DNA from: Bradymonadia bacterium
GTDB taxonomy: Bacteria; Myxococcota_A; Bradymonadia; UBA7976; UBA1532
DNA: 64,000 nucleotides
Reading direction: 5' to 3'
Assembly: GCA_046290225.1 (NCBI GenBank)
Contig: JBKAGE010000037.1
Span: 1 to 64,000 of the forward strand
In this document: in pieces, positions 13,991-29,704 of the stretch
Layout: every line of letters begins with the position of its first letter
How positions within the stretch are numbered: position 1 is the stretch's first letter
Made by a program: the position numbers and the translations under genes
The notes under the pieces: model-generated
The model's input: only the letters and a program-made list of their open reading frames with translations
Told to the model about the DNA's origin: nothing
Database searches by the model: none

Positions 13991-13998
<8 letters not shown>
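13462..13998 (-). CDS. actD: Alternative complex III subunit D (DUF3341 type)
   Basis: [25 protein letters not shown]. Confidence 0.9.
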
Positions 13999-15406
<1,408 letters not shown>

Positions 15407-15409
15407 GCC

Positions 15410-18400
15410 TCAGCCCTCCAGCTCGGGGTTGGGGTTGCTGATCTTCGCGAGGAACGAAGTGCGGTTCTTCAGGTTCAGCTCGCTGAGGATGGTGTAATCC
15501 CGCTCACGGGCCTTGGCCTTGGTCACCGCGCTGCCCTTGTTGTTGATGTCACCGAAGACGATGGCACCGGAGGGGCACGCCTGAGCGCAGGCGGTGGTGA
15601 GGTTGTCCATGATGGACTTGGCCTTGCGATCGTCAGGGGCGAGCTTGGCGTTGAGCTTCGACTTGTTGATGCGCTGCACGCAGTACGTGCACTTCTCCAT
15701 GACACCGCGGAAACGCACGGTGACGTTGGGGTTGCGCGCCATCTGAATCAGCTCGGGCCAGGACTTGGTGTAGTTGTAGAAGTTGAACCGCCGCACCTTG
15801 AAGGGGCAGTTGTTCGAGCAGTACCGGGTGCCGATGCACCGGTTGTACACCATGTCGTTGAGCCCCTCGGGGCTGTGCACGGTGGCGGCCACCGGGCACA
15901 CGTTCTCGCAGGGGGCGTTCTCGCACTGCTGACAGTTCAAGGGCTGGTGGAGCACCCGGGGGTTCTCGGCGTCGCCCTCGAAGTAGCGATCCATGCGGAT
16001 CCAGTGCAGCTCGCGACCGCGCATCACCTGGTCTTTGCCGACAGGCGGGATGCTGTTCTCGGCCTGACACGCCACGAGACAGGCGTTGCAGCCGGTGCAC
16101 TTGGTCAGGTCGATGGCCATGCCCCACTGGTAGCCCTTGGAGTAGTCGTGCTCCTTGTAGATGGCCTCCGTCGGGGGATGCACCACCGGGGCGCCCTGGG
16201 GGAAGGGCTTGCCGTGCTCGATGATCCCGGGCTTGGCGAAGTCGGGCTTCTTGGCGAAGCCGGCGATGGTGTTCTCGCGAACGAGGGGCCGGTCGACGTA
16301 GCCGGGGGCCACCTCGGGGTCGTACCCCGCCTGGCGGCCGTAGCGCTGCACACAGGCCACCTTGAAGGCGTTCCCGGTGGACTTCAGCGTGGCGCCGAAG
16401 GCGATGTCGGGGTTCGCCGCGGTGCGCATGGGGTTCACGTTGGCGCCCACAGGGCCCGAGGCGTGGTAGGTCAGGTAGCTGTTGAAGTACCGACCGAAGC
16501 CTACGGCGAGGGCCACAGTGTTGGCGGCCAGACCCGGCAGGATCCAGGCAGGCACCTTCACTGAAGCGCCGTTCACGGTGACCTCGACCTCCTGCTCGTT
16601 GGCCACGCCGAGGGCTTCGGCGGTGGCAGGGCTGAGCAGCGCGGCGTTGTCCCACGTGATCTTGGTGAGGTTGTCCGGGGTCTCCATCATCCAGCCGTTG
16701 CCGCCGAAACGCCCGTCCCACATGTGGGCGGTCTCGTAGAAGATCACCTCGAGGGCGTCTTTACTCGGCGTCTTGGGGGTGGGCCGGTTCTCGAAGAAGC
16801 TACCGGCGGGCATGCCGGGCTGAGCCGTGAGGGCGGTGAAGACGCGCTCGGCGACGACGCCGTCGTGCAGCATCTTGCGCCAGGCCTTGAAGAAGCCGTT
16901 GGACCCGAGCTTCTGCTTCCAGGCGCCGCGGACCACGTCGTGGCTGCTGGTCTTCTCGTCACCGAGCAGCATGGCCAGGACCTCGACGTCGGCCTTGGCG
17001 CCGAAGATGGGGTCGATGAGCGGCTGCTGGATGCTCACGGTGCCGTCGGTGGCGGTGATGTCACCCCAGCTCTCGAGGAAGTGCGCCCGGGGGAACACGT
17101 GGGTGCTCGCCGCGGCGGTCTCGTCGATGATGGCCTCGAGATCCCGATCGCTCTGGTTGGGGAACTCTTCGACGTGCTTCACCTGAGGCGCGTGATGGCT
17201 GAAGGTGATGCGGGTCTTGGCCTTGGCGAAGGCCTCGGCCACCTTCACGTCGCCGGGGGCGGTGAAGAGCGGGTTGGTGCCGAGGTTGATCACCGTGGTG
17301 AACTTGCCGCTGTTGAGGCCCTCGACGAGGCGCTTCAGGTTGTCGGCGTCGCCGATCTCGAGCACGGGCCGACGGGTGTCGGGGTAGTACTGGACCAGGC
17401 TGCCGTGGGCGGCGAGGGCGCCGTTGATGAGCACGGCGAGGGCGTGCACCGCCGGGGACTGCCGGCGGCCGGCGAAGACGATGGCGCGCTTGCGGGCCTT
17501 GAGCAGGTCAGCGACGAGGACCTTGACGAACTTGGCCTCTTCTTCGCTGAGCTTCGCGGCGCCGTACTGGTCGATGAACTTCTCGGTGCCGACGGCGAAG
17601 GCGGCCTTGCCATCCTTGAGGCCCTTGGCCACGGCCCAGGCGATGGCCTCGACGCGGCTGGCGGGCACCCGGAGGCGGTGCTCGGCGTTGGTACCGGTGG
17701 TGCTGTAGAGGCCCTCGACGGCGTACAGGCGGCTCATGTTCTCCGCCTGCTTGGCGGGGCTCATCTTCCGCAGCCGCTCGATGTCGCGGGTGGCACCCCA
17801 GAGCTTGCCGTTGCGCACCGACTCACCCTCGGAGTGGAGGAAGTCGGAGTCGAAGGACACCAGGACCCGCGCCCGGTCGAAGCGGTACTGGGGGATGGAG
17901 GCGGTGCCGAGGACGGCCTTGATGCCCGCCCGCTGGTTGTCTTCGCTGATACCCTCGTAGGTGAACCACTTCGCCTGGTTCAGGTCACCCTGGAGCACCC
18001 GCTTGCGCAGAGCATCGAGGGTGGGCGAGGCCTTGGCGCCGGCGATGATGGCCAGGCCCTGGCCCTTGCTGGCCCGCAGAGCCTCGAAGGTCTTCTTGAG
18101 GGCGGCCTCGCCAGCAGCCCAGTCCACGGACTCGCCGTTGACGACGGGGCGGGTGAGGCGCGAGGGATCATAGAGCTCGTGAATCTGCGCCAGGTGAGGG
18201 GCGGCGCAGGCGCCGAAGCTGCTGGTGTGCTCCGGGTGGCCCTCGATCTTCGTGGGGCGGCCCTCGTGGCTCTCCACGATGAGGCCCATGGCCCGGCCGT
18301 TCACCTGAGCGGCGGTGGCGTAGAACTGAGGCACGCCGGGGACGAGATCCTCAGGGGCCTTGCTGTAAGGCAGGATCTTGTCTTCGGGGCGGCGGACGCA

Positions 18401-18649
18401 GCCCGCGAGACCCGCGGCGGCGACGCCCATACCCACGGCGCCCATGAAGCCACGACGGGTCTGACCACCGCCAGTAGCGATCTGCGCACCACCGTCCTCG
18501 GGGACCTCGGGAGACAGGCCGCCGTGCTTCTCGAAGTCGATCGGCAGCTTGTCGGCGAACTCTTTGGCCTCGGCCTCAGCGAAGGCCTCCGTGCCGTGCA
18601 GCTCGTCGAGGCTGCGCCAGTAGCGACGATTCTTGGTCTTCGTGTTCAT
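15410..18649 (-). CDS. actB: Alternative complex III subunit B (molybdopterin-oxidoreductase-like domain plus Fe-S domain)
   Basis: YWRSLDEL; Tat motif TRRGFM followed by LAGC; EGRPTKIEGHPEH; CTGCNAC, CQQCENAPCENVCP, CIGTRYCSNNCP, CTYC, CAQACP; ATGA overlap with actA. Confidence 0.95.
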   Translation of the reverse strand: MNTKTKNRRYWRSLDELHGTEAFAEAEAKEFADKLPIDFEKHGGLSPEVPEDGGAQIATGGGQTRRGFMGAVGMGVAAAGLAGCVRRPEDKILPYSKAPEDLVPGVPQFYATAAQVNGRAMGLIVESHEGRPTKIEGHPEHTSSFGACAAPHLAQIHELYDPSRLTRPVVNGESVDWAAGEAALKKTFEALRASKGQGLAIIAGAKASPTLDALRKRVLQGDLNQAKWFTYEGISEDNQRAGIKAVLGTASIPQYRFDRARVLVSFDSDFLHSEGESVRNGKLWGATRDIERLRKMSPAKQAENMSRLYAVEGLYSTTGTNAEHRLRVPASRVEAIAWAVAKGLKDGKAAFAVGTEKFIDQYGAAKLSEEEAKFVKVLVADLLKARKRAIVFAGRRQSPAVHALAVLINGALAAHGSLVQYYPDTRRPVLEIGDADNLKRLVEGLNSGKFTTVINLGTNPLFTAPGDVKVAEAFAKAKTRITFSHHAPQVKHVEEFPNQSDRDLEAIIDETAAASTHVFPRAHFLESWGDITATDGTVSIQQPLIDPIFGAKADVEVLAMLLGDEKTSSHDVVRGAWKQKLGSNGFFKAWRKMLHDGVVAERVFTALTAQPGMPAGSFFENRPTPKTPSKDALEVIFYETAHMWDGRFGGNGWMMETPDNLTKITWDNAALLSPATAEALGVANEQEVEVTVNGASVKVPAWILPGLAANTVALAVGFGRYFNSYLTYHASGPVGANVNPMRTAANPDIAFGATLKSTGNAFKVACVQRYGRQAGYDPEVAPGYVDRPLVRENTIAGFAKKPDFAKPGIIEHGKPFPQGAPVVHPPTEAIYKEHDYSKGYQWGMAIDLTKCTGCNACLVACQAENSIPPVGKDQVMRGRELHWIRMDRYFEGDAENPRVLHQPLNCQQCENAPCENVCPVAATVHSPEGLNDMVYNRCIGTRYCSNNCPFKVRRFNFYNYTKSWPELIQMARNPNVTVRFRGVMEKCTYCVQRINKSKLNAKLAPDDRKAKSIMDNLTTACAQACPSGAIVFGDINNKGSAVTKAKARERDYTILSELNLKNRTSFLAKISNPNPELEG

Positions 18650-19341
18650 CGGTGGCACCCCGAGCAATGCAGCGGCGGGTTGATGTTGTTCTCTTCCTTG
18701 AGCTTCGTGCCCACGGCGAGCTGGTCACCGCCCTCGGGCTCGTACCCCATCACCGTCACCATCTCCGGCGGGCGGAGGTGGTTCTCGGGGGCCCGGTGGC
18801 ACTCGAGGCACCAGCCCATGTTGAGGGGCTGGTCCTGACGCACCTCGATCATCTGATCGATGCGGCCGTGGCAGGACTCACACCCGACGCCGGCGGCGAT
18901 GTGGGCGTTGTGCTGGAAGTAAGCGTAGTCGGGGGTCTTGTGCACCCGGACCCAGGGGATGGGCTTGCCGGAGGCGAAGCTCTCCCGCACCGGGAGCAGC
19001 TTGGGGCTCTCGGTCTTGATCTGCCCGTGGCAGTTCATGCAGGTCTGCGTGGGCGGCACCCCGGCGTGAGCACTCTTCTCCACACCGGTGTGGCAGTAAC
19101 GGCAATCGATGCCGAGGCTGCCAGCGTGGAGCTTGTGGCTGTAGGGCACCGGCTGCTTGGGCATGTAGCCCACGTCGGTGTACTTCGGTGAGAAGTAGTA
19201 CCAGACGGCGGCGATGATCATCACCGTACCGAGGCCACCAGCCACCGTCATGATGGCTGGCACCTTGTTGTGCCAGGAGGGGAAGACGAAGTGAGGTCGC
19301 CTCTCTTCGTTTCCGGCGTTGCCGTGTTCCTTTTCGCTCAT
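18646..19341 (-). CDS. actA: Alternative complex III pentaheme cytochrome c
   Basis: N-terminal TM helix; QPVPYSHKLH; five CxxCH motifs (CRYCH, CMNCH, CESCH, CLECH, CSGCH). Confidence 0.95.
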   Translation of the reverse strand: MSEKEHGNAGNEERRPHFVFPSWHNKVPAIMTVAGGLGTVMIIAAVWYYFSPKYTDVGYMPKQPVPYSHKLHAGSLGIDCRYCHTGVEKSAHAGVPPTQTCMNCHGQIKTESPKLLPVRESFASGKPIPWVRVHKTPDYAYFQHNAHIAAGVGCESCHGRIDQMIEVRQDQPLNMGWCLECHRAPENHLRPPEMVTVMGYEPEGGDQLAVGTKLKEENNINPPLHCSGCHR

Positions 19342-19673: not shown

Positions 19674-21053
19674 CTAGGGATTATCCCCAGCAAAATCATC
19701 ATGCTCCAGGCCCCATGCCTTGAGCTTGCGCTGGAGGGTACGGCGGTTGATGTCGAGGATCCGGGCCACCCGAGTGATGTTCTTGTGGTGGGCCAGCAGC
19801 CGCTCGATGTGCCTGCGCTCCACCGCTTCGAGACTGATCTCTTCTATGACGTCGGATTGTGGCGGCGGTGGTGGCATCGTACCGGCGCTGGAGAAGGGGT
19901 TGGCGGCGAGCATCCGCCGTACGAGGGCACCATCGACGTCGCCGTCGACGGCGAAGAGCGCCACTCGACGGGCCAGGTTCACGAGCTCTCTCACGTTCCC
20001 GGGCCAGGGGTGAGCCAGCAGCGCCGCATGGGCGTCGTCGCTGAAGTTGAACGGCCCCCGGGCCACGCGATCGAGCCAGTGGGTCATGATGGGCACGATG
20101 TCGTCCCGACGCACCCGCAAGGGGGGCAGCTCGAGGGGCAGCACCTGCAACCGGTAATAGAGGTCTTCTCTGAAGCGCCCTGCTTTGACCTCCTCGTGCA
20201 ACTTGCGATGTGTGGCGGCGATCAGCCGGCCCCGGAACGACACCTCCCGGGTCTCACCCACAGGGCGGAAGCTTCGGGCTTCGAGCACGCGGAGCAGCTT
20301 CGCCTGATGCTCGATGGGCAGCTCGGCCACCTCGTCGAGAAACAGAGTGCCCTCCCCCACCTCTTCGAAAAGGCCCACCTTGCGTCGATCGGCGCCGGTA
20401 AACGCCCCTTTAGCATGGCCGAAGAGCTCCGACTCGATGAGATCAGGGGGCAGGCAGGCCATATTGATGGGGATGAAAGGCTGCGCCACTCGAGGTGACT
20501 GCTGGTGCAGAAACCGCGCGGCCACCTCTTTTCCTGTACCTGTCTCCCCTGTGAGGAGGACCGGCTCGTCTGCGCCAGCGAGCCGGGTGAGCAGCGCCCT
20601 CAGCTGCTCTGTGGCGGGGCTCTGGCCCACGAGATCCACCCCACCGGCCTCCTGGGCGGCAGCTTGCCGCAGGACCGGCGCGAGGCCATCACCGTCGACA
20701 GGCTTCATCAAGAAGGTGTACGCCCCGAGGCGCATGGCCTCTACAGCGTCGGGCACGGTGCCGTGGCCAGTGAGCACCACCACGGGCATCGAACGCCCTG
20801 GTGTCTGCCTCAACACGTCGAGGCCACCCAAACCCGGCATACGCAAATCGAGCACGGCGACGTGCGGGGCCTCGGGATCATCGTGGGCGGCGTTGAAGGC
20901 CCCGACGGCGGCTTCTCCATCGCCGAGCTGAGAGACCGAGAAACCCCTTCGCCTCAGCGCCTTGGCCATGGCAATTCGAAAGGGCTCATCGTCGTCGATG
21001 AGGAGCACGCGCAGCTTTTGAGTCGGTGCCGGATCGGTTGACGCTCGGATCAT
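19674..21053 (-). CDS. sigma54-dependent response regulator (REC-AAA+-HTH) with RegA/PrrA-like receiver and HTH
   Basis: Start 21053 (AGGAG RBS); LLIDDDEPF, VLDLRMP, KP; GETGTGKE, ESELFGHAKGAFTGA, LFLDE, WPGNVREL; C-terminal RRTLQRKL. Confidence 0.9.
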   Translation of the reverse strand: MIRASTDPAPTQKLRVLLIDDDEPFRIAMAKALRRRGFSVSQLGDGEAAVGAFNAAHDDPEAPHVAVLDLRMPGLGGLDVLRQTPGRSMPVVVLTGHGTVPDAVEAMRLGAYTFLMKPVDGDGLAPVLRQAAAQEAGGVDLVGQSPATEQLRALLTRLAGADEPVLLTGETGTGKEVAARFLHQQSPRVAQPFIPINMACLPPDLIESELFGHAKGAFTGADRRKVGLFEEVGEGTLFLDEVAELPIEHQAKLLRVLEARSFRPVGETREVSFRGRLIAATHRKLHEEVKAGRFREDLYYRLQVLPLELPPLRVRRDDIVPIMTHWLDRVARGPFNFSDDAHAALLAHPWPGNVRELVNLARRVALFAVDGDVDGALVRRMLAANPFSSAGTMPPPPPQSDVIEEISLEAVERRHIERLLAHHKNITRVARILDINRRTLQRKLKAWGLEHDDFAGDNP

Positions 21054-21152
21054 GACGCCATCTCCTGGTGCAGTCGATGCGATCAATGTTAGCAAGACCT
21101 GAGCCGACAATCGGCCACCCTTCAGAGAGTCGGACAGCGCAGTAGAAGGTGG

Positions 21153-23108
21153 GTGAATCCCACCCTGAAAGGGAGTAGGCTCACCACCGTGTGGATCTGC
21201 CCAGAATGCAGGACGGTTTACCGGGTGTCGGCCCCGACGTGCGAACGTGACGGGGCCCCCCTCGCTCAGGTCTTTGCCCATCAGACCCGAGGCCGCTTCC
21301 CCTTGCTCGGCAAGGTGGTGGGCGATCGCTACAGGCTCATCGGCGGCCTGGGCAAAGGCGGGCTGGGCACGGTCTACCTCGCCGAGCACCAGCACCTCGG
21401 TCACCTCTTCGCGATTAAATTTCTCGAGCTCGGCGGTGAAGAAGCCTCTGATCAGGTGAAGAAGGATCGCGATCGTCATCGTCGCGACTTCCTGAAAGAG
21501 GCCCGGGTCGCCTCCCTCATTCGCCATCCCTCAGTGGTGGGGGTGACCGACTTCGGCGAGCACGAAGATCTACCCTTCCTCGTGATGGACTATGTGCCGG
21601 GCCCCTCTCTCCTCCAGGAGATGGAGCGCAAGGGGCGGTTCTCGTACAAAGAGGCCTGCGACATCGCCCTGCGCATCGCCGAGGCCCTCAACGCCTTCCA
21701 TGAGCGGCGCCTCGTTCACCGCGACCTCAAGCCGGCGAACCTGATCCTCGATCCCCGCGAAGACGGCCGCCTCACCCTGGTGGACCTGGGCCTCGTCAAA
21801 GATCTTGCTGGCCCTGGCGGTAAAGACTCCACTCACCCCCTGGCCCTACGTGGTACGCCGGGCTACCTCGCCCCGGAGCAGGTGCCGGGCTGGGTGCTTC
21901 AGGGGGCCGGCGTCCGGGCGGTGAAGAAAGAGAAGAAGGCCGTCGATCCTCGGGTCGACATCTACGCCCTCGGCGTCATCCTCTACGAGATGCTCGCTGG
22001 AGAGCCCCCCTACCCCGACGGCTCGAACACGCAGGTCATTGTCTACGCCTGCACACAAGATCCCAAACCGCTGCACGCGCTCGATCTGCCCATTGATCAC
22101 ATCGTGAAGGCTGATCCCCCCGTGGGCCTTGAGAAGCTGGTCCTCGACACGATGTCCCGGGATCGCGACACGCGCCCCGCCTCTGCCGCAGAGTTCATCG
22201 AGCGCCTGAAGGCGACGATGGCGGAGATCGAACGCCCCGCTCCAGTGCGGGTGCCCATCAACGCCTCCGCCCTCACGGCGCTGCCGGGGCTCGCCACCCG
22301 ACCGGGGTTGCCCAGCAGCGAGACGATGCCCGACGACAGCATGGGCAGCGAATACGACACGATGGTCTTCGACACCAACGCCCACCCCGATCCGGACGAC
22401 GGCTTCGATCTCGAAGACTCCCTCGACGAAGAGGCGGCGACGGTGGCGGGCCCCATGCCCGAGATCATCGCCGAGGCCAGGGCTGCCCAGGCCGCTCAGG
22501 TGGCCCGAGAGGCTCGTGGGCTCCCCACAGAAGACGATCGCCCCGGGCCGCGGCTGGGGCTCTGGATCGGCTTGCTCGGGGTGGTGCTCGCCGCAGCGGC
22601 AGGAGTCTGGTGGGCCCTGAGCAGCAACGGCAGCGGCGATCCGGTGGATCGACAGACCATCGACAATCGGGGCCAGCTGCCCGTGGGCTCTCTCCCAGAG
22701 ACGCCAGCAACGCCCGATGCCGGTCAGCCTCAAAAGCTCGACGCTGAGTTGACGATCCCAGTCTTACCGCTGGATCCACCGGAAGAGGCGCCTGATGCTC
22801 AGGGCGCAGCGGCCTCGACCGACGCTGGGGCGTCAAAGCCGACTACCCGGCGGCGCAAGCGTCGTCGCCGCGCCACGCCACCTGTGGTCAAGGACACACC
22901 CACGGTCCCCCCACGTGGTCCCACAGATGACGAGATCCTGGTGGCGCTGCTCCGTGAGGGTGACAGCGCCTTCAAGCGGGAGTCCTATCAGCGAGCCCTG
23001 CGCAACTACCGCAAGTTTCTCGCCCGGGCACCGCAAAGCCACGCCAAGTACTTCCAGGTGAAGCAGCGCGTGCGCTCCTTGGAACAGCTCACCGCCTACG
23101 ACCGCTGA
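21153..23108 (+). CDS. Membrane Ser/Thr protein kinase with a C-terminal TPR-like region
   Basis: CPEC..CERDG N-terminus; GKGGLGTVY, AIK, HRDLKPAN, DLG, GTPGYLAPE, DIYALG; TM helix; TPR-like GDSAFKRESYQRALRNY; start may be 21189. Confidence 0.9.
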   Translation: MNPTLKGSRLTTVWICPECRTVYRVSAPTCERDGAPLAQVFAHQTRGRFPLLGKVVGDRYRLIGGLGKGGLGTVYLAEHQHLGHLFAIKFLELGGEEASDQVKKDRDRHRRDFLKEARVASLIRHPSVVGVTDFGEHEDLPFLVMDYVPGPSLLQEMERKGRFSYKEACDIALRIAEALNAFHERRLVHRDLKPANLILDPREDGRLTLVDLGLVKDLAGPGGKDSTHPLALRGTPGYLAPEQVPGWVLQGAGVRAVKKEKKAVDPRVDIYALGVILYEMLAGEPPYPDGSNTQVIVYACTQDPKPLHALDLPIDHIVKADPPVGLEKLVLDTMSRDRDTRPASAAEFIERLKATMAEIERPAPVRVPINASALTALPGLATRPGLPSSETMPDDSMGSEYDTMVFDTNAHPDPDDGFDLEDSLDEEAATVAGPMPEIIAEARAAQAAQVAREARGLPTEDDRPGPRLGLWIGLLGVVLAAAAGVWWALSSNGSGDPVDRQTIDNRGQLPVGSLPETPATPDAGQPQKLDAELTIPVLPLDPPEEAPDAQGAAASTDAGASKPTTRRRKRRRRATPPVVKDTPTVPPRGPTDDEILVALLREGDSAFKRESYQRALRNYRKFLARAPQSHAKYFQVKQRVRSLEQLTAYDR

Positions 23109-28302: not shown

Positions 28303-28466
28303 CGCGTCCCTTCGAGCGCCGTCTTCGACCACCATCGTCGAACAGACGATCTGCTAGCAGCGTCGGGGTTTGTGAGCAAGGCCTTGAGGCCATGTGATAC
28401 ATGCAGAGAGCCCATCTGAGCGGTTGCCGTGAGCACCTGCTCAGCATTTTCTTCCGGGAGTGCCCG

Positions 28467-29282
28467 ATGTTCGTACCCTTCGCGCTGATCGTCTCGTTGC
28501 TCTACGCCCCGCAGCACCCCTTCCCAGCGCCTCAAGTCACCGAGTCCCCTGCCGTGGGCGGTCGCTGGATCACGGTGACCATCGCCGCGCCGCCGTCTAC
28601 AGGTCCTGAATACAAGTCCGAGGTGTACTTCACCGCCGAGCCTGTGATGGTGGTGAGCCCCAAGGCCTACACGGCTTTGAACGAGGCCAACATCGCCGAC
28701 TCGGGCCTGGCGATGGATCTCAACGGTGACGGAGATCGCACCGACGTGCTGCCCACGACGTGTGAAGGCCGCGACGTGAAGGTGGGCGAGTCGACCTTCA
28801 CGCCTCTCTTCAAGGCGAGCTACATGCAGTACACGGAGAAATCTGTGGGCCGCATTGGCAAGAACGGTGCTCAGGTGGTGCAGTACACGCCCTGCGGGCC
28901 CTACCTCGCCATGGGCTTCTCACCGCCCGGGCATGATCTGAAGCTCCAGAAGCTGACGGGCCCCATGCTGCAGATCAGCGTCGCTCAGCCCCAACCGGGT
29001 CCCCGAGGGCTGCCCACACTGCGCACATCGTCCTGGACCCTCGACGGCAAGCCCATCGCCCCTTTGATGACCCAGGTGAAGTCCTTCGAGCCCGGGGAGA
29101 AGCAGACACCCACCTGGGTGCACGTGCACTGGGCGGTGATGAGCATCCCTGTGGGCGGCCAGCACGTTGTGAAGTTCAAGGTGGAAGGCCCCGGCAAGGG
29201 CATGGTGGCGGCAGGCGTGAACCTGGCGCCCGCGCCCGGGCGACGCTGGCGTGGGCCCATGGGGACCCATCAACTGAAATAG
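28467..29282 (+). CDS. Secreted hypothetical protein
   Basis: GGAG RBS; hydrophobic N-terminus; DLNGDGD Ca-binding-like loop; GC-rich third codon positions. Confidence 0.6.
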   Translation: MFVPFALIVSLLYAPQHPFPAPQVTESPAVGGRWITVTIAAPPSTGPEYKSEVYFTAEPVMVVSPKAYTALNEANIADSGLAMDLNGDGDRTDVLPTTCEGRDVKVGESTFTPLFKASYMQYTEKSVGRIGKNGAQVVQYTPCGPYLAMGFSPPGHDLKLQKLTGPMLQISVAQPQPGPRGLPTLRTSSWTLDGKPIAPLMTQVKSFEPGEKQTPTWVHVHWAVMSIPVGGQHVVKFKVEGPGKGMVAAGVNLAPAPGRRWRGPMGTHQLK

Positions 29283-29314
29283 CAACAGGTGCTGCCTCTC
29301 GTTGGACAGCCACC

Positions 29315-29373
29315 AAAAAAAATGCGAGCCACCTGCCGAGATCCATCCCCCGATCTCGGCAAGTGACTCGCAT
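29315..29373 (-). terminator. Intrinsic terminator on the minus strand
   Basis: 22-bp stem (29322-29343/29352-29373), 8-nt loop, U8 tract; the two stem differences are G-U pairs only on the minus strand. Confidence 0.8.
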
Positions 29374-29528
29374 CAACGGTGACGCTCAGCGCGGCGTGGC
29401 GCGTCACCTGATGGTGTGATGGGCAGAATCACCACACCATCCCTCTCCCTCAGTTGCAGCCGACCCGCCTCTCCCCAGGTCTGAGTCAGCCGTGGCGTCC
29501 CTGGGGTTCAACCCCATCGCCTTCGGGG
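29315..29528 (-). ncRNA. Candidate sigma54-dependent structured small RNA (~215 nt)
   Basis: Lies between a sigma54 promoter and a terminator; four hairpins; no convincing ORF; no known family recognised. Confidence 0.55.
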
Positions 29529-29538
29529 TAAAGGGCTT

Positions 29539-29555
29539 AGCGAGGGGTATGCCAA
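29539..29555 (-). promoter_or_regulatory. sigma54 -24/-12 promoter
   Basis: TTGGCATACCCCTCGCT with GG-N10-GC spacing. Confidence 0.65.
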
Positions 29556-29584
29556 ACACCCGGCACAGAGGCCACACCTAAACA

Positions 29585-29597
29585 AATCAACAACTTA
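29585..29597 (+). promoter_or_regulatory. IHF-binding site
   Basis: AATCAACAACTTA is an exact match to WATCAANNNNTTR, between the promoter and the repeat array. Confidence 0.65.
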
Positions 29598-29603
29598 AGC
29601 ATT

Positions 29604-29704
29604 TGGCACAGGCATGTGCCATCACTTGAGCTGGCACAATCGCTGGCACAGTGCCAATTGCTGTGCCAGCGATTGTGCCAATTGCTGTGCCAATCATTGG
29701 CACA
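29604..29704. repeat. Array of nine TGGCAC(A)/(T)GTGCCA motifs, mostly with a 12-bp period
   Basis: Copies at 29604, 29615, 29632, 29644, 29651, 29662, 29674, 29686 and 29698 in direct and inverted orientation. Confidence 0.9.

Follow-up and report, generated by a model that had tools for sequence, protein, structure and literature searches.

A sigma-54-dependent transcription unit for a non-coding RNA of about 215 nucleotides probably lies on the minus strand of the spacer described here, to judge from the layout of its sequence. The spacer is part of the window (the whole stretch of 64,000 nucleotides that was analysed, from contig C37 of an 8.58-Mb genome with 64% GC) and is flanked by a gene for an unknown protein (28401–29282) and a gene for an FG-GAP/ASPIC-UnbV protein; both are on the plus strand, the orientation given in an earlier note on this DNA. 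The candidate sequence is single copy in the genome. The earlier note had proposed a new sigma-54-dependent small RNA (sRNA) distinct from Pxr, and the architecture of the unit, the chance estimates and the outcome of the Rfam search support that proposal. As to function, the most likely single role, though somewhat less than probable, is that of a sponge resembling RosA and RsaI that acts on C-rich anti-Shine–Dalgarno sRNAs of the same cell. The features of the unit are the following.

29604–29704, no strand assigned: nine TGGCAC(A)/TGTGCCA half-sites seen in the sequence, mostly spaced 12 bp apart, upstream of the IHF site
29585–29597, plus strand: IHF site with the exact consensus WATCAANNNNTTR, some 60 bp upstream of +1, with the array on one side and the promoter on the other
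29539–29555, minus strand: sigma-54 −24/−12 promoter, 19.5 bits on a genome-derived matrix
29315–29529, minus strand: predicted non-coding RNA of about 215 nt (folding z −6.4, negative small-ORF scores, no Rfam match)
29494–29521, minus strand: hairpin 1 of the predicted fold, inner stem 29502–29516, unpaired GGGA at 29501–29498
29457–29492, minus strand: hairpin 2, three G–U pairs, loop GGGGAG at 29476–29471 with an unpaired probability of about 1.0
29441–29451, minus strand: G-rich linker GAGGGAGAGGG, predicted to be the site that pairs best with the C-rich loop CCCUCCCUCC
29410–29441, minus strand: hairpin 3 of the predicted fold, 12 bp, one G–U pair
29378–29408, minus strand: hairpin 4 of the predicted fold
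29315–29373, minus strand: intrinsic terminator, 22-bp stem 29322–29373 with two G–U pairs, loop GGGGGAUG at 29351–29344, U8
29404–29517, minus strand: 37-codon ORF, probably not coding (score −15.1), with a 12-nt leader lacking a good Shine–Dalgarno sequence
29440–29429, minus strand: micro-ORF MVW* behind the G-rich linker (score −3.2), start inside hairpin 3
29435–29373, minus strand: 20-codon GTG ORF behind the G-rich linker (score −6.2), start inside hairpin 3

The −24/−12 element reported in the earlier note is present, and the positions of its GG (29553–29552) and GC (29541–29540) place +1 at about 29529/29528, which upholds the earlier prediction of about 29528. Its score was obtained with a matrix trained on this genome's own sigma-54 promoters, with the candidate site outside the training set, and sites of at least 19 bits arise at a chance rate of 8e-5 per 250 nt when coding DNA serves as the null. 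Genome-wide, a loose sigma-54 pattern has 413 matches, of which 120 are intergenic where about 45 would be expected, and the −12 variant TCGC is in use, with 20 matches (nine intergenic; eight within 250 nt of a gene start). The genome encodes one copy of rpoN, four IHF/HU genes and 51 hits to sigma-54 activator domains, 44 of which are strong; the activator domain closest to the candidate is about 9 kb away. The exact IHF consensus is likewise where it had been reported and, among the 32 in the genome, it alone has a sigma-54 pattern within 100 nt in that orientation.

The nine half-sites farther upstream had been missed by the earlier note. Clusters of at least three such half-sites number five in 8.58 Mb, and the array at 29604–29704 is the densest. 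Across 166 sigma-54 sites of the genome, the candidate has nine copies, a site on contig C69 has seven and all others have at most four. The C69 cluster (C69:360–620), which is the second densest, lies upstream of a sigma-54 promoter and a gene whose product is a secreted hexapeptide-repeat protein that has dozens of paralogs, and it shares an 18-nt exact match with the array in the window; the TGGCAC/GTGCCA motif is found also at several protein-gene promoters. From its sequence, the array is likely to be an enhancer for a sigma-54 activator, and none of the 44 strong activator-domain candidates in the genome was singled out as that activator. A −24/−12 promoter, an enhancer-like array and an IHF site are all present at the candidate as sequence motifs, and the array strengthens its reading as a new sigma-54-dependent small RNA.

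The minus-strand RNA has a predicted folding energy of −119.4 kcal/mol (z −6.4), compared with −95.8 kcal/mol (z −4.8) for the plus strand. Folding confirmed the hairpins that had been proposed at 29502–29516, 29410–29441 and 29378–29408 and revealed a fifth, at 29457–29492, that had been overlooked; part of the linker GAGGGAGAGGG is predicted to be tied up in a 3-bp helix formed with the RNA's 5′ end. The 22-bp terminator stem with U8 also withstood analysis, the U8 occupying 29315–29322 and its first U closing the stem. In a genome-wide scan of 258 intergenic terminators, five of which have a sigma-54 site of at least 14 bits upstream within the same spacer, this one ranks first in stability (−41.4, ahead of −32.1 for the runner-up), and it is one of two with a G-rich loop among 229 terminator hairpins, compared with eight that have C-rich loops. 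The argument that G–U pairs favor the minus strand holds for the two in the terminator stem and extends to six internal G–U pairs in the minus-strand helices as a whole. Just beyond the main terminator, a second, weak terminator-like hairpin is found at 29281–29296 (minus strand).

Elsewhere in this genome, orphan sigma-54-type promoters lead to tRNA-like arrays or to short RNAs with C-rich loops, the latter on contigs C72, C44 and C35. The RNA at C72:111666–111745 (plus strand), beside mvaD, is a hairpin of about 55 nt with a sigma-54-type promoter and the loop CCCUCCCUCC. Tracing by mvaD synteny recovered 14 copies of this RNA in 12 of 26 loci. In these copies the promoter and the loop CCCUCCCUCC are invariant, and the 14-bp stem is paired in 196/196 cells, with double-sided changes at seven of 14 pairs, a level of covariation reached in 0/500 shuffles. 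The C72-type family is real: its stem covaries, its loop is invariant, and the family model detects it in 17 of 27 family genomes, three of which have it tandemly duplicated. The family stands irrespective of the candidate's function. No Rfam model reaches its cut-off with this RNA. A run of C rather than U lies 3′ of the hairpin in most relatives. Weak matches of the model outside the family, four loci of which were inspected, were rejected as repeats or promoter-only matches. The other two C-rich RNAs, at C35:546140–546355 and C44:18758–18990 (both plus strand), are sigma-54-type RNAs of about 190–210 nt with several C-rich loops and U7 terminators, and in one of 26 relatives the gene that precedes the C35 RNA is followed by a five-hairpin C-loop RNA.

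The upstream motif of the candidate recurs at the promoters of the C72-type family. With the qualification that relatives are not independent samples, a TGGCAC-type 7-mer is present in at least two copies at 16 of 18 C72-type promoters, compared with 26 of 166 among this genome's sigma-54 sites, and a de novo search of the C72-type promoters of 17 relatives ranks GGCACA and GTGCCA highest among 6-mers. In the genome studied here, the C72 promoter has one copy of the 7-mer and two of the shorter core, and the C44 and C35 promoters have zero and one core copies, respectively; a shared activator within this genome gains no support from these low numbers. Strong sigma-54 promoters also stand before tRNA genes and tRNA-like RNAs at C44:41111, C34:374570 and C35:239913 (plus strand). 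Some of the tRNA-like RNAs behind such promoters carry long anticodon-arm inserts, and our guess is that these RNAs are Y-RNA-like.

Several single-stranded G-rich regions are predicted in the candidate. On the predicted structure, exposed GGG[GA] amounts to 4.99, compared with a shuffle mean of 0.35, a level reached in 0/400 shuffles and in none of 540 intergenic windows sampled from 3,626; with the stems held fixed, 194/20,000 permutations match the candidate's unpaired GGG count, all for a statistic picked after the sequence had been inspected. Pairing with the C-rich RNAs is less distinctive. The linker GAGGGAGAGGG, an imperfect complement of the CCCUCCCUCC loop, is predicted to form 10 bp with it, interrupted by one bulge, at −19.5 kcal/mol raw and −12.9 after the opening cost, and 31 of 5,690 ribosome-binding windows pair with that loop as well as the linker does. 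Four candidate sites together reach −35.7 after opening costs. The summed pairing energy with the loop is matched by 45/300 shuffles and 4/540 intergenic windows and the best single site by 34/300 shuffles. With accessibility taken into account, 4, 3 and 6 of 60 shuffles pair as well with the three partner RNAs, and cofolding of the whole molecules gains little (0 to −5.3 kcal/mol). The terminator loop GGGGGAUG is predicted to pair with a CAUCCCCC stretch of the C35 RNA. From the shuffle and window statistics, the display of G-runs is non-random and the pairing strength is largely a matter of composition.

If the candidate is a sponge, an enhancer-binding protein would occupy the nine half-sites at 29604–29704, IHF would bend the DNA and sigma-54 polymerase would start near 29529. 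The RNA would fold into five hairpins and end at its own terminator, leaving GGGA, GGGGAG, GAGGGAGAGGG and GGGGGAUG largely unpaired. These G tracts would then pair with the C-rich loops of the C72, C44 and C35 RNAs, chiefly CCCUCCCUCC, and would do so without Hfq, for which the genome gave no match in a search that was positive in five of 14 control genomes. By analogy with RosA, such pairing would relieve the block that the C-rich RNAs would impose on ribosome-binding sites. Since the upstream motif is shared by the C72-type promoters, a single signal may govern regulator and buffer alike. The fullest form of this model, which we consider doubtful, is that one enhancer-binding protein drives both the ~55-nt anti-Shine–Dalgarno hairpin RNA and a G-loop sponge with a nine-site enhancer that buffers this RNA and the two multi-loop C-rich RNAs, making up an RNA-only global translation switch in an Hfq-less, high-GC lineage. 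The sponge reading draws support from a promoter and terminator far beyond chance, a layout like that of glmY, the exposed G-runs and the existence of a real partner family; it is weakened by the lack of any homolog found, by pairing near the shuffle level and by the small cofold gains.

In a related, near-identical strain, at least 29421–29571 is present with two differences in 151 nt, on a single contig of depth 2; the three DNA runs searched consist of short pieces only, and this one strain contig spans the interval. The homologs that the earlier note had proposed collecting for covariation did not emerge from blastn, model, synteny or pattern searches. Specifically, blastn found none in 40 relatives, a single-sequence covariance model gave two weak matches, both in coding DNA, in 27 family genomes and no candidate homolog in sets of 18 and 50 loci, and none lay upstream of 21 FG-GAP homolog loci (five more distant paralog loci were left out). 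Pattern searches were of exact patterns on partly incomplete genomes, for which not found does not mean absent: a 24-nt exact candidate pattern had no match in metagenomes; the enhancer pattern had 18 metagenome matches, all unrelated, and none in viral contigs; the IHF-plus-promoter pattern had at least 50 matches in genome contigs, by title from organisms outside this lineage, and yielded no homolog in the family; half-site array patterns yielded none, and neither did promoter-plus-G-tract patterns in 5 + 5 genomes; and enhancer-plus-promoter patterns in 20 genomes returned promoters of C-rich sRNAs and of protein genes, repeats and coding matches. An Rfam search, which had also been suggested, gave no match at gathering score, and sub-threshold matches of the candidate to miRNA models were set aside as generic hairpins. 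Outside the supplements of the bioRxiv TRIC-seq preprint, which may contain sponge pairs of M. xanthus, literature searches turned up no description of the candidate or of the partner RNA.

That the locus holds no functional RNA at all, being instead a fold-back or repeat element specific to the lineage, or else a relic with weak transcription, whose array would be a product of strand slippage, would fit its occurrence in this genome only and partly in one near-identical strain, as well as the hairpin repeat families of the genome and the tandem TGGCAY repeats in relatives. We consider it unlikely, however, given that the candidate is single copy, that enhancer, IHF site, promoter and terminator are arranged in an order expected by chance about 1e-4 times per spacer, that the G–U asymmetry favors one strand and that the second-densest half-site cluster, on C69, likewise precedes a sigma-54 promoter. 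A small peptide encoded by the 37-codon ORF, the 20-codon GTG ORF or MVW, with the RNA serving as its mRNA or in a dual function, is a still less probable account. The linker GAGGGAGAGGG does resemble a strong Shine–Dalgarno sequence just 5′ of AUG and GUG codons, and 93 of the 120 intergenic sigma-54 matches in the genome precede protein genes. The 37-codon ORF that the earlier note had offered as the alternative exists and, as it said, lacks a good Shine–Dalgarno sequence, but a hexamer coding model gives it and all other small ORFs of the candidate negative scores. In addition, start codons lie hidden within the 12-bp stem, structure takes up nearly the whole RNA, and the strain's one listed difference (from the low-depth contig, depth 2) is non-synonymous in the 37-codon ORF yet falls in the loop of hairpin 1; in the neighboring gene of the same strain, 17 of 20 listed variants, also from one low-depth contig, are at third positions. 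A functional RNA of the plus strand, for example a 3′ UTR of the gene at 28401–29282, is by far the least probable. Read as the reverse complement, the RNA would have C-rich loops resembling those of the other sRNAs, and it folds at z −4.8, but plus-strand sigma-54 sites in the spacer reach 7.1 bits at best, neither a sigma-70 site nor a terminator was found on the plus strand of the spacer, and six G–U pairs would turn into A–C mismatches.

Two further readings accept the RNA and assign it a different partner. The earlier note had suggested a CsrA-type sponge on the strength of six GGA motifs. The six motifs are present (2.85 expected per 216 intergenic nt), as are four ANGGA (0.55 expected), exposed GGA exceeds the shuffles (7/400 reach it) and the genome has a csrA gene, so that titration of the protein CsrA by a sigma-54 RNA has something in its favor. 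However, three of the six GGA are predicted to be unpaired, exposed ANGGA is at the shuffle level (0.11 vs a mean of 0.13; 108/400 reach it), and both fully looped GGA carry G where CsrA sites carry A. The sole genomic copy of csrA, moreover, lies within a flgL–csrA–fliW cluster and adjoins fliW, and a flagellin-like gene of this genome has ACGGA and AAGGA in its leader. In excerpts of work on C. jejuni, FliW and flagellin mRNA replace sRNA antagonists of CsrA, the CsrA motif is given as (C/A)A(A/T)GGA, and an anti-correlation between FliW and CsrB/C sRNAs is stated (PMC4894983). We therefore think CsrA titration improbable. The ribosome-binding site of csrA itself (C75:228974) is within the best 25 predicted targets of the CCCUCCCUCC loop. 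On the second of these readings, the candidate would be a trans-acting sRNA whose G-rich loops serve as seeds on C/U-rich stretches of mRNAs instead of on sRNAs. Exposed G-runs would suit any C-rich partner, and a setting free of Hfq would suit G–C-rich seeds, but C-rich sRNAs whose promoters belong to the same class are obvious partners in this genome, and we rate the mRNA alternative as rather unlikely.

The sponge reading has its closest precedents in RosA and in S. aureus RsaI, which the accessible text of PMC8216469 presents as G-rich sponges for C-rich sRNAs. RosA of B. subtilis is described there as about 229 nt long, with three G-rich regions, and as binding the C-rich sRNAs RoxS and FsrA. 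The candidate resembles it in being a stand-alone RNA of similar size, with an intrinsic terminator and several G-rich regions that are single-stranded (by prediction in the candidate), and in sharing its cell with C-rich sRNAs. In contrast, RosA has a sigma-A promoter under CcpA control and demonstrated binding according to that text (PMC8216469), whereas the candidate has a sigma-54/IHF/enhancer layout in a Gram-negative lineage and its binding is predicted only. Judged from the candidate's Rfam hits, it has no sequence match to RosA or RsaI. The promoter layout is shared with glmY, for which excerpts of PMC3045617 describe control by sigma-54, GlrR and IHF and the order activator sites, IHF site, −24/−12 element, sRNA; GlrR sites are three TGTC-N10-GACA palindromes (PMC3045617), as opposed to nine half-sites in the candidate. 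GlmY, in the literature seen in part, is a decoy of the protein RapZ. Sponges of the CsrB/RsmY/RsmZ type are, like the candidate, multi-hairpin RNAs with several GGA; the candidate differs in its low GGA density, in exposed ANGGA that is not enriched and in the FliW-type CsrA of its host.

Pxr, as described in excerpts of PMC5568312 and PMC5684412, is 108 nt long, has three stem-loops and lies directly downstream of pxrR/nla19. On these partial sources, it and the candidate are alike in having a sigma-54 promoter with an upstream enhancer (putative in the candidate), a multi-hairpin RNA and an Hfq-less host. The candidate differs in its length of about 215 nt, its five hairpins, and the lack of an adjacent activator gene and of an Rfam match, and it was rejected as Pxr by model, size and context. 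The Pxr model (RF01812) is absent from the candidate's 29 Rfam hits at E up to 10 and has no match in this genome; it matched 0/121 phylum genomes, so that it had no positive control. The portion consulted of a preprint reports that Pxr and MXnc1 bind near Shine–Dalgarno sequences in Hfq-less M. xanthus (bioRxiv 10.1101/2025.09.11.675593), which fits the role proposed for the C-rich partner RNAs; these are nearer to that reported role of Pxr than the candidate is. The closest known counterparts of the C72-type RNA are the Cuckoo/ar14 RNAs, which in the excerpt of PMC4615179 have a constant C/U loop and variable stems, with the loop CCUCCUCCC in two to four hairpins (PMC4615179) as compared with CCCUCCCUCC in one; the partner's best Rfam score in this comparison is 35.1 bits (cut-off 58.8), obtained in one of seven loci. 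In the sources available to us in part, G-rich sponges for C-rich sRNAs are represented by Firmicutes examples, and knowledge of sRNA control in myxobacteria is largely confined to Pxr. Should the sponge reading be true, sponge logic that needs no chaperone would also operate in a Gram-negative lineage, within a sigma-54 regulon.

Several other features of the genome were observed. Dense tRNA arrays are found at C37:77269–79067 (10 genes) and C20:227–1226 (nine genes), and ARAGORN called a tRNA-Pyl (CUA) at C14:27995–28067 (minus strand). The window contains, at 13991–19341 and 19674–21527 (both minus strand), a cluster that we take to resemble alternative complex III, together with a sigma-54 activator gene. 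A dispersed family of hairpin repeats with a sigma-54-like −24/−12 sequence occurs on C76, C54, C1, C7, C41, C50, C78, C38 and C40. Finally, at C71:168800–168876 (plus strand), a hairpin with the anti-Shine–Dalgarno-like loop UCACCUCCU and a U-run lies directly 5′ of a gene start and may be an attenuator.
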